Below are positions 7,572 to 41,944 of a DNA stretch of 64,000 nucleotides, in pieces. The notes beneath the pieces are model-generated. The model had not been told where the DNA came from. It was given only the letters and a program-made list of their open reading frames with translations, and did not search any database. Numbering within the stretch: position 1 is the first letter of the stretch; every line of letters starts with the position of its first letter. Source of the stretch: Escherichia coli (GTDB lineage: Bacteria; Pseudomonadota; Gammaproteobacteria; Enterobacterales; Enterobacteriaceae); assembly GCF_001677475.2 (NCBI RefSeq), contig NZ_CP015229.1; one strand, written 5' to 3'. The translations under genes were made by a program, and so were the position numbers.

Positions 7572-8741
7572 TTAGCTGTTGGCAACGCAAACTGTTTCAG
7601 GTTGTTTTCTGGCTGACATAAACACCAGCAATAATGCCAGTCCCGCGACAATCGCCCCCATCACCGGCACAAAGCTGTATCCCAGCCCAGCGGAAATTAC
7701 CGCACCACCAGCAGCTGCTCCCAGCGCATTTCCAAGATTAAAGGCACCAATATTGACTGATGAAGACAGACCTGGCGCTTCACTGGCGACACGCATCACG
7801 CGCATCTGTAACGGCGGTACGACCGCAAAGGTTGCAGCGCCCCACACCACCATGCTAATAGCTGCGCCGAACTCATTGCGGGCCAGGAACGGGATTGCCA
7901 GCATAATCACCATCAGCAGCAACAAAAAGCCTTTCAACGTGCCGTTAACTGAACGATCTGCCAGTTTGCCGCCGAGATAGTTACCGATAGAGAATCCGAC
8001 ACCAATCAGCACCAGCATTGCCGTGACGAACACCGGCGTTGCGTGGGTAATGCTTTGCAGTACCGGAGAGATATAGGTGTAGAGGGTAAACATTGCACCA
8101 GCTCCCAGTACCGTCGTCAGCAATGCAGACAGCACCTGCGGACGCATTAATACCGCCAGCTCTTTTTTCACTTCAGGTCGCGCCCCTGCTCCACCTTTAG
8201 GTAATGAGAAGAACAGACTTACCATTGAAATCACGCCCAGCCCCGCCGTTGCCAGAAATGACATCCGCCAGCCGATGGTTTCGCCCAACCAGGTCGCTGC
8301 CGGAACGCCACCGATATTTGCCAGGGTTAACCCCATAAACATAGTGGCAACTGCGCTGGCCTGTTTATGTTTTGGCACCACGCTTGCGGCCACAACTGAA
8401 CCCAAACCAAAAAATGCTCCGTGATTCAGGCTGGTCAAAATGCGTGAAAGCATGAGAGTCATATAATCCGGCGCGATGGCGGAAAGTACGTTGCCGAGCG
8501 TGAAAATCGCCATCAGGAAAATCAACGCACTGCGGCGAGCACGATGAGAAAGTAGAAGCGTCATCAGCGGCGCGCCAACCATTACGCCAACTGCATAGGC
8601 ACTGATTAACATTCCGGCAGCGGGAATCGAGACATCCACACCGCGCGCAATGACGGGCAATAAGCCCATTGGCGAGAACTCCGTTGTCCCGATACCAAAC
8701 GCGCCAATCGCCAGCGCCAGCAACGGATAGTTAATTTTCAT
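7572..8741 (-). CDS. ydhP: MFS transporter YdhP
   Basis: 389 aa hydrophobic multi-span protein of the major facilitator superfamily. Confidence 0.93.
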   Translation of the reverse strand: MKINYPLLALAIGAFGIGTTEFSPMGLLPVIARGVDVSIPAAGMLISAYAVGVMVGAPLMTLLLSHRARRSALIFLMAIFTLGNVLSAIAPDYMTLMLSRILTSLNHGAFFGLGSVVAASVVPKHKQASAVATMFMGLTLANIGGVPAATWLGETIGWRMSFLATAGLGVISMVSLFFSLPKGGAGARPEVKKELAVLMRPQVLSALLTTVLGAGAMFTLYTYISPVLQSITHATPVFVTAMLVLIGVGFSIGNYLGGKLADRSVNGTLKGFLLLLMVIMLAIPFLARNEFGAAISMVVWGAATFAVVPPLQMRVMRVASEAPGLSSSVNIGAFNLGNALGAAAGGAVISAGLGYSFVPVMGAIVAGLALLLVFMSARKQPETVCVANS

Positions 8742-8906
8742 GCCTTATCTCCACCTCTTCGCGTCATTACGCGATATTCATTAAAGTGGCGAAAGCATGA
8801 CAGCAATCACAAAAAAATGAAAATAACAAAAAGAGAAAACACTTTTGCCATTTTGCTAACAAACAGGAAAGAGAGGCGAGGGAGAACGCGCTCCCTCGAG
8901 AGGAAA

Positions 8907-8996
8907 TCAGTGCAGCGCGGCAGTCAAACCCACGGCCACGATCAAACCGAGGACGATAATCGTTGTTACCAGTGAAAATTTAAGGTCGGTGCTCAT
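8907..8996 (-). CDS. ynhF: Small membrane protein YnhF (29 aa)
   Basis: ATG...TGA encoding MSTDLKFSLVTTIIVLGLIVAVGLTAALH, a single transmembrane helix; not present in the supplied ORF track because it is too short. Confidence 0.75.
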   Translation of the reverse strand: MSTDLKFSLVTTIIVLGLIVAVGLTAALH

Positions 8997-9234
8997 CAAG
9001 TTTTCTCCTTTTTTATTACCACACAAAAAGTGATATTACGCATTTTTACACACTGTGATGAAAAAATCTCCCGTCATTTATAATGATAAGTGTTTTTACC
9101 ACTTCCCCTTTTCGTCAAGATCGGCCAAAATTCCACGCTTACACTATTTGCGTACTGGCCATTGACCCCTTCCTGACGCTCCGTGTCGTTTTTCCGGCGT
9201 ACCGCAACACTTTTGTTGTGCGTAAGGTGTGTAA

Positions 9235-9250
9235 AGGCAAACGTTTACCT
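9235..9250. promoter_or_regulatory. PurR operator (PUR box) in the purR leader
   Basis: AGGCAAACGTTTACCT matches the 16-bp PUR box palindrome (ACGCAAACGTTTGCGT type). Confidence 0.7.
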
Positions 9251-26944: not shown

Positions 26945-26958
26945 TGAATGGTTTCAGC
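26945..26958. promoter_or_regulatory. Putative Cra (FruR) box in the pykF upstream region
   Basis: Bottom strand GCTGAAACCATTCA fits the Cra consensus RSTGAAWCSNTHHW. Confidence 0.45.
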
Positions 26959-27163
26959 ACTTTGGACTGTAGAACTCAACGACTCAAAAACAGGCACTCA
27001 CGTTGGGCTGAGACACAAGCACACATTCCTCTGCACGCTTTTTCGATGTCACCTATCCTTAGAGCGAGGCACCACCACTTTCGTAATACCGGATTCGCTT
27101 TCCGGCAGTGCGCCCAGAAAGCAAGTTTCTCCCATCCTTCTCAACTTAAAGACTAAGACTGTC

Positions 27164-41653: not shown

Positions 41654-41838
41654 TTTCTCATCAGGCGGCTCTGCCGCCTGATTGTTAACCACCGCTAATT
41701 GATATTTGCTTGCTCTTCCCCATATTTTCCTGCTTACCGCCATTCAGCTGGTAGTACCTGTCGCAAATTCTTTACAGTTTTTAAACTAATGAGACGAATC
41801 TGATCGACGCAAAAAGTCCGTATGCCTACTATTAGCTC

Positions 41839-41944
41839 ACGGTTATAAATCAACATATTGATTTATAAGCATGGAAATCCCCTGAGTGAAACAACGAATT
41901 GCTGTGTGTAGTCTTTGCCCATCTCCCACGATGGGCTTTTTTTT
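41839..41944 (+). ncRNA. rprA: RprA small RNA (activator of rpoS translation)
   Basis: Matches the remembered RprA sequence ACGGTTATAAATCAACATATTGATTTATAAGCATGGAAATCCCCTGAGTG... ending in the terminator CCCATCTCCCACGATGGGCTTTTTTT. Confidence 0.9.

Follow-up and report, generated by a model that had tools for sequence, protein, structure and literature searches.

Location and start codon of cydH

The window analysed here, a 64-kb stretch of Escherichia coli DNA, contains a 29-codon open reading frame on the minus strand (8996-8907) that runs ATG AGC ACC ... CAC TGA and translates as MSTDLKFSLVTTIIVLGLIVAVGLTAALH, followed by the stop codon. The frame is flanked by ydhP (7572-8741, minus strand) and purR (9295-10320, plus strand). 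The first-pass annotation had described an unlisted ATG...TGA frame of exactly this position, strand and translation, and had assigned it to the K-12 small protein YnhF. The frame was found as claimed, but it is unlisted only in the sense that it is absent from the mechanical six-frame track, since RefSeq annotates it as cydH, 'cytochrome bd-I accessory subunit CydH' (WP_000102278.1), with the features of one record mapping exactly to 8907-8996 on the minus strand. The name YnhF is likewise right yet out of date, the protein having since been renamed CydH (also CydY) and characterised. The features of the locus are as follows.

8877-8898, minus strand: G+C-rich stem-loop CGAGGGAG-loop-CTCCCTCG of 8 pairs, a terminator-like call, which starts 8 nt after the cydH stop codon
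8904-9294, minus strand: match to Rfam RF02081 'STnc550 sRNA', 396.1 bits against a gathering score of 48, covering the full model (1-388)
8907-8996, minus strand: cydH (ynhF, b4602) coding sequence, 29 codons plus TGA, encoding the single-transmembrane-helix subunit of cytochrome bd-I
9005-9009, minus strand: Shine-Dalgarno motif AGGAG, read from the sequence, 8 nt before the ATG
9042-9050, minus strand: TGTAAAAAT, an extended -10-like element (TG-n-AAAAAT) of the predicted cydH promoter
9062-9069, minus strand: the AGATTTTT block, -35 region of the predicted promoter, with fully conserved positions in the consensus of motif-bearing sequences and in the alignment

The length of such a frame is uninformative by itself because short frames are abundant: 89 ORFs of at least 20 aa were listed within 5 kb, and ORFs of 20-50 codons that begin with ATG number 549 in the 64-kb window. 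Three of these 549 reach a mean Kyte-Doolittle hydropathy of at least 2.5 over 19 residues, and cydH alone combines a hydrophobic core of this strength with AGGAG or GGAGG 5-16 nt upstream of its start. The best 19-residue window of the CydH peptide scores 2.53, and the mean over residues 7-28 is 2.45, which agrees with the earlier description of a single-transmembrane small protein. The case can thus serve as a positive control, a genuine 29-codon gene having been picked correctly from raw sequence; a strong Shine-Dalgarno motif together with a hydrophobic core isolates it among the 549 ORFs, and the synteny-anchored dN/dS analysis described below recovers it clearly.

The mechanical ORF list gives a 39-aa, TTG-started version of the frame (8907-9026). 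The true start is the ATG at 8996, because ATG is present at this position in all 81 aligned sequences (see below), a Shine-Dalgarno core lies upstream and the intact 29-aa protein with formyl-methionine has been detected (PMC12529367). A core of the GGAG or AGGA type precedes the ATG in 81 of 81 aligned sequences, most commonly, by our script's count, at a distance of 9 nt (63/81). Immediately before the ATG there is an in-frame TTG (8997-8999, minus strand) in 77 of the 81 sequences, in the context AAAA-n-TTGATG, and this TTG may simply be part of an A/U-rich initiation region. The corresponding codon is ATG in Klebsiella pneumoniae and in Enterobacter sp. ENT03, giving a 30-aa form that begins MMD.

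Conservation and identity of the CydH protein

For the evolutionary comparison, loci were picked by the neighbouring PurR protein alone, without conditioning on the small ORF, from 80 species-representative genomes covering about 25 genera of Enterobacteriaceae. The cydH frames were then pulled out with a loose motif that matched all 81 sequences (the 80 loci plus the window), so that none was dropped; the set comprises 78 distinct DNA sequences and 51 distinct peptides. A clearly similar ORF of 29-30 codons was present at 80 of the 80 purR-anchored loci, 286-299 nt from the purR start, and the frame is intact in 81 of 81 syntenic sequences. The stop codon is TGA in 63 sequences and TAA in 18.

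Substitutions within the frame follow the codon phase, with mean pairwise differences of 0.186, 0.121 and 0.499 at codon positions 1, 2 and 3, respectively. The dN/dS ratio is 0.11 in frame (dS 1.31, dN 0.145), compared with 1.35 and 1.88 in the two shifted frames, and internal stop codons occur in 0, 78 and 27 of the 78 distinct sequences in frames 0, +1 and +2. In the 90-nt flanks we observed no 3-nt phase, and pseudo pN/pS values were 0.74-0.93. Among the checks that the first-pass annotation had proposed, detection of the protein is already published (see below), and purifying selection on the reading frame is what the comparison reveals: the frame, the start codon, the ribosome-binding site and the purR-adjacent position of cydH are kept under strong purifying selection across the Enterobacteriaceae. 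Eight residues of the protein are invariant in the 81 sequences (M1, L5, T11, T12, L16, I19, V20 and A26) and four more are nearly so (K6, S8, L9 and L28). Periodicity of conservation along a single helical face was not significant (permutation p = 0.14 at 100 degrees and p = 0.21 over 95-105 degrees), and we therefore make no claim from conservation about which face of CydH binds CydA.

The peptide is identical at all 29 of its residues (100%) to chain H of PDB entry 6RKO, and the same sequence occurs in seven further entries (eight PDB entries in all). It matches the NCBIfam equivalog NF033411 'small_mem_YnhF' with 50.2 bits against a cutoff of 30 (E = 1.7e-13), residues 1-29 aligning with profile positions 1-29, and its 90% cluster of 163 members carries the names 'stress response protein YnhF', 'YNHF_ECOLI' and 'cytochrome bd-I accessory subunit CydH'; these matches bear out the identification with K-12 YnhF. 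Over the 801 bp around cydH, identity with the best-matching E. coli records in RefSeq is 99.8%, and the same 801-bp query matches 5425 of 5426 complete E. coli genomes, 5420 of the 5426 at a coverage of at least 80%. When set beside CydH/CydY/YnhF of E. coli K-12 (b4602, UniProt A5A618, 6RKO chain H), the 29 residues, the position between ydhP and purR and the strand arrangement are identical, and no difference was detected.

The peptide agrees with CydH/YnhF in its profile score, in its length and hydrophobicity and in its identity to chain H of 6RKO, as does the locus in its synteny and in the selection on its frame, and no observation speaks against this identity. We conclude, with a probability of about 0.95, that the locus is cydH (formerly ynhF; CydY in the usage of one group), a gene that stands alone and encodes an inner-membrane protein of 29 residues. 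It is an already known gene: RefSeq annotates it, NCBIfam has a curated model for it, its product occurs in at least eight PDB entries, and the role of that product in cytochrome bd-I has been published. Its orphan position is a shared property, the purR-side offset being the same at 80 of 80 other Enterobacteriaceae loci. The annotation of the matching E. coli record shows neither cyd nor app genes over the first 50 kb of the stretch, and cydABX lies outside the 64-kb window.

CydH in cytochrome bd-I

Two cryo-EM studies of 2019 established CydH as the fourth subunit of cytochrome bd-I, which led to its renaming (PDB 6RKO chain H; PMC6853902). In the E. coli bd oxidase that they had purified, Thesseling et al. 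(2019) saw a fourth subunit of about 3 kDa that had not been expected, and LC-ESI-MS/MS showed this subunit to be YnhF (PMC6853902). According to earlier work cited in that paper, YnhF is made at low oxygen, keeps its formyl-methionine and is encoded between ydhP and purR, outside the cyd operon (PMC6853902). CydH co-purifies with CydA, CydB and CydX though it is not encoded on the expression plasmid, and structures from 2025-26 again contain the CydA-CydB-CydX-CydH heterotetramer. The published association of CydH with CydAB comes from E. coli BL21-derived and other preparations, made from strains other than that of the window. In a review, CydH is said to co-occur with the long-Q-loop bd-I oxidase; the E. 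coli bd-II and mycobacterial enzymes are without a CydH-type subunit.

Top-down mass spectrometry has recovered intact CydH at 100% coverage with a formylated initiator methionine (PMC12529367). The same paper labels CydH as part of bd-II, in conflict with the paper on the structure of bd-II, where no fourth subunit was found; the label is probably a slip. Beside this label, the literature includes cydH mRNA among listed kanamycin B-binding RNAs and CydH in an RNase E two-hybrid screen (PMC13232886; PMC10018874; PMC12529367).

Reviews describe the single helix of CydH as lying opposite CydX in a CydA cleft that is bordered by TM1 and TM9; in the cryo-EM structures the helix covers heme b595 there. 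The structural proposal is that CydH thereby blocks a wide cavity by which dioxygen would approach heme b595 and which stands open in the Geobacillus thermodenitrificans enzyme, and that dioxygen reaches heme d by a narrower channel starting in CydB (PMC6853902). In the argument of the structure authors, closure of the wide cavity would force dioxygen to take the narrower, hydrophobic CydB channel, which may serve as a selectivity filter. A channel-blocking role for CydH is thus suggested by the comparison of structures, and our literature search found no cydH deletion phenotype. Cytochrome bd-I is an antibiotic target.

Other small oxidase subunits share some of these properties. CydX of E. 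coli, AppX of bd-II and CydS of Geobacillus resemble CydH in having fewer than 40 residues and a single transmembrane helix and in binding CydA or AppC. Reviews, however, place them near heme b558, on the side of CydA opposite to that occupied by CydH, and describe their role as mainly structural, whereas CydH is bound near heme b595 between TM1 and TM9. The genes for CydX and AppX form part of their own oxidase operons, whereas cydH adjoins no oxidase gene. Membership of CydH in the CydX/YbgT family was considered and rejected, as a Pfam search with the peptide returned no family at an E-value of 1 or better and no oxidase gene is adjacent. CcoQ of cbb3 oxidase and CioY of Campylobacter are, like CydH, single-helix accessory peptides on a terminal oxidase core, but their sequences are unrelated and the oxidases that they bind are of different families. 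A review likens CioY to CydX rather than to CydH and reports that C. jejuni yielded no homologue of CydH.

CydH might in addition have a job independent of bd-I, for example as a small membrane peptide of the general 'stress response' with other partners such as the membrane-targeting region of RNase E, and such a job would account for the location of cydH away from cydABX, the gene being an orphan with no annotated cyd or app gene over the first 50 kb of the matching stretch. Older sources do use the name 'stress response protein YnhF', a bacterial two-hybrid screen with RNase E yielded full-length CydH once, with a positive result on re-testing, and a dual membrane orientation of CydH has been reported, according to a paper citing that work. 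The two-hybrid authors themselves, however, attribute the interaction to a generic stickiness of transmembrane helices that is common to many single-helix preys, every structure places CydH stoichiometrically on CydA, and no bd-I-independent phenotype was found in the literature search. We therefore consider an additional function of this kind unlikely.

Predicted transcription signals and the STnc550 family

Upstream of the ribosome-binding site, the cydH leader region carries the conserved extended -10-like element TGTAAAAAT. The pattern TG-n-n-AAAAT was found in 78 of 81 sequences at a fixed distance of 44-45 nt from the ATG (42 nt in one sequence), compared with about 2.4% in shuffled flanks, and the element is invariant across 14 genera. 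From this conservation we infer that cydH is transcribed from a promoter of the extended -10 type some 45 nt ahead of its ATG, which would put the transcription start near 9035 and give a leader of about 38 nt. A scan of the minus strand for consensus sigma-70 promoters called none. An RNA-seq study mentions a site that depends on RNase G and lies at most 200 nt downstream of where ynhF transcription begins, which implies that RNase G processes a 5' extension of the transcript, and therefore the leader may exceed about 38 nt.

The AGATTTTT block and TAAAT(C/G) at 9080-9075 make up an imperfect inverted repeat whose consensus reads AAATC-N6-GATTT. With its centre near -36, the repeat may be bound by a regulator over the -35 region. 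Inspection of the repeat by eye gave no convincing match to the consensus sites for FNR (TTGAT-N4-ATCAA), CRP or ArcA, and a literature search for cydH with FNR or ArcA returned nothing on regulation.

On the other side of the gene, the stem-loop at 8877-8898 is kept in nearly all sequences: among 71 distinct sequences, the median z-score relative to shuffles is -3.1, and 83% lie below -2. The hairpin is likely to be a terminator or a 3'-end stabiliser. The T-run that follows it is poor in most species, and because this U-tract is weak, partial read-through or co-transcription of cydH with ydhP, which lies 165 nt away on the same strand, is possible. Further downstream of the hairpin a conserved ATTGTTATCA motif is present in most genera, E. 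coli not being one of them.

The match to Rfam RF02081 (8904-9294) spans the whole purR-cydH intergenic region together with the cydH Shine-Dalgarno motif and coding sequence. The same DNA on the same strand is therefore filed as an sRNA gene, which raises the question of whether the locus is a non-coding small RNA in which the 29-codon frame is incidental. The match is full-length, scores 396 bits and lies on the cydH strand, and nucleotide conservation of the leader exceeds that of the ORF: the entire intergenic region of about 300 nt is conserved, and a block of about 105 nt at 9100-9204 has a mean pairwise identity of 0.82-0.92 compared with 0.67-0.83 for the coding sequence (81 sequences). 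The Rfam consensus itself, however, holds the Shine-Dalgarno motif, the ATG, the entire frame and the stop codon (GGAGAAAAcUUGAUG...CUGCACUGA) and annotates them as unpaired; the frame shows codon-phase substitution with a dN/dS of 0.11; and the protein has been seen by mass spectrometry and cryo-EM. Nor does the best-conserved part of the leader behave as a structured RNA. RNAalifold analysis of 73 distinct sequences, confined to the block 9215-9090, gave -2.0 kcal/mol for the sense strand and -1.1 kcal/mol for the antisense strand, essentially no consensus fold, and the helices predicted there comprise one of 4 bp and one of 2 bp, both nearly invariant and with no double-sided compensatory change. 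We rejected this block as a structured RNA, since essentially nothing was found on either strand, and the literature search found no mention of STnc550. The protein evidence refutes an exclusively sRNA explanation, to which we assign next to no probability.

The STnc550 family thus consists of the leader plus the coding sequence of cydH, its 3' quarter being coding sequence under protein-level selection, and the label 'non-coding sRNA' is unsupported for its ORF-bearing part. The conserved block at 9100-9204 is probably divergent promoter-regulatory DNA of purR and cydH, and we infer that its conservation acts at the level of DNA, through for example divergent promoters and regulator sites, rather than through a structured RNA. 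Minus-strand motifs within the block include GTCAATGGCC, GGAATTTTG and AAAAGGGGAAG. It is rather improbable that the region forms a shared, so far undescribed control region coupling oxygen-responsive expression of the oxidase subunit to the divergent gene of the purine repressor, purR, or that the cydH transcript doubles as a regulatory RNA.

Closer to purR, AGGCAAACGTTTACC at 9235-9249 on the plus strand has an identity of 0.96, more than any other 15-mer in the region, and fits the published purR autoregulatory operator. A second site, GTGGAAACGTTTGCT, lies inside the purR coding sequence at approximately 9320-9340, having been placed by eye. Both have been reported as GalR ChIP-chip sites under the label 'ynhF/purR' (PMC5110547).

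That cydH is merely a chance, hydrophobic-looking ORF in an intergenic region, as the abundance of short frames (89 in 5 kb and 549 in the window) might suggest, is refuted by its combination of a hydrophobic core with a strong Shine-Dalgarno motif, which no other of the 549 shows, by the conservation and selection seen in 81 of 81 intact sequences with a dN/dS of 0.11, and by the direct detection of the protein by mass spectrometry and cryo-EM.

Elsewhere in the window, as judged from the matching E. coli record, a further RefSeq-annotated small protein, YnhH (64 aa), is encoded at about 26949-27143 on the plus strand and ends 8 nt before pykF. The same record places two tandem tRNA-Val genes at about 17887-18044 and the sRNA gene rprA at about 41826-41933.
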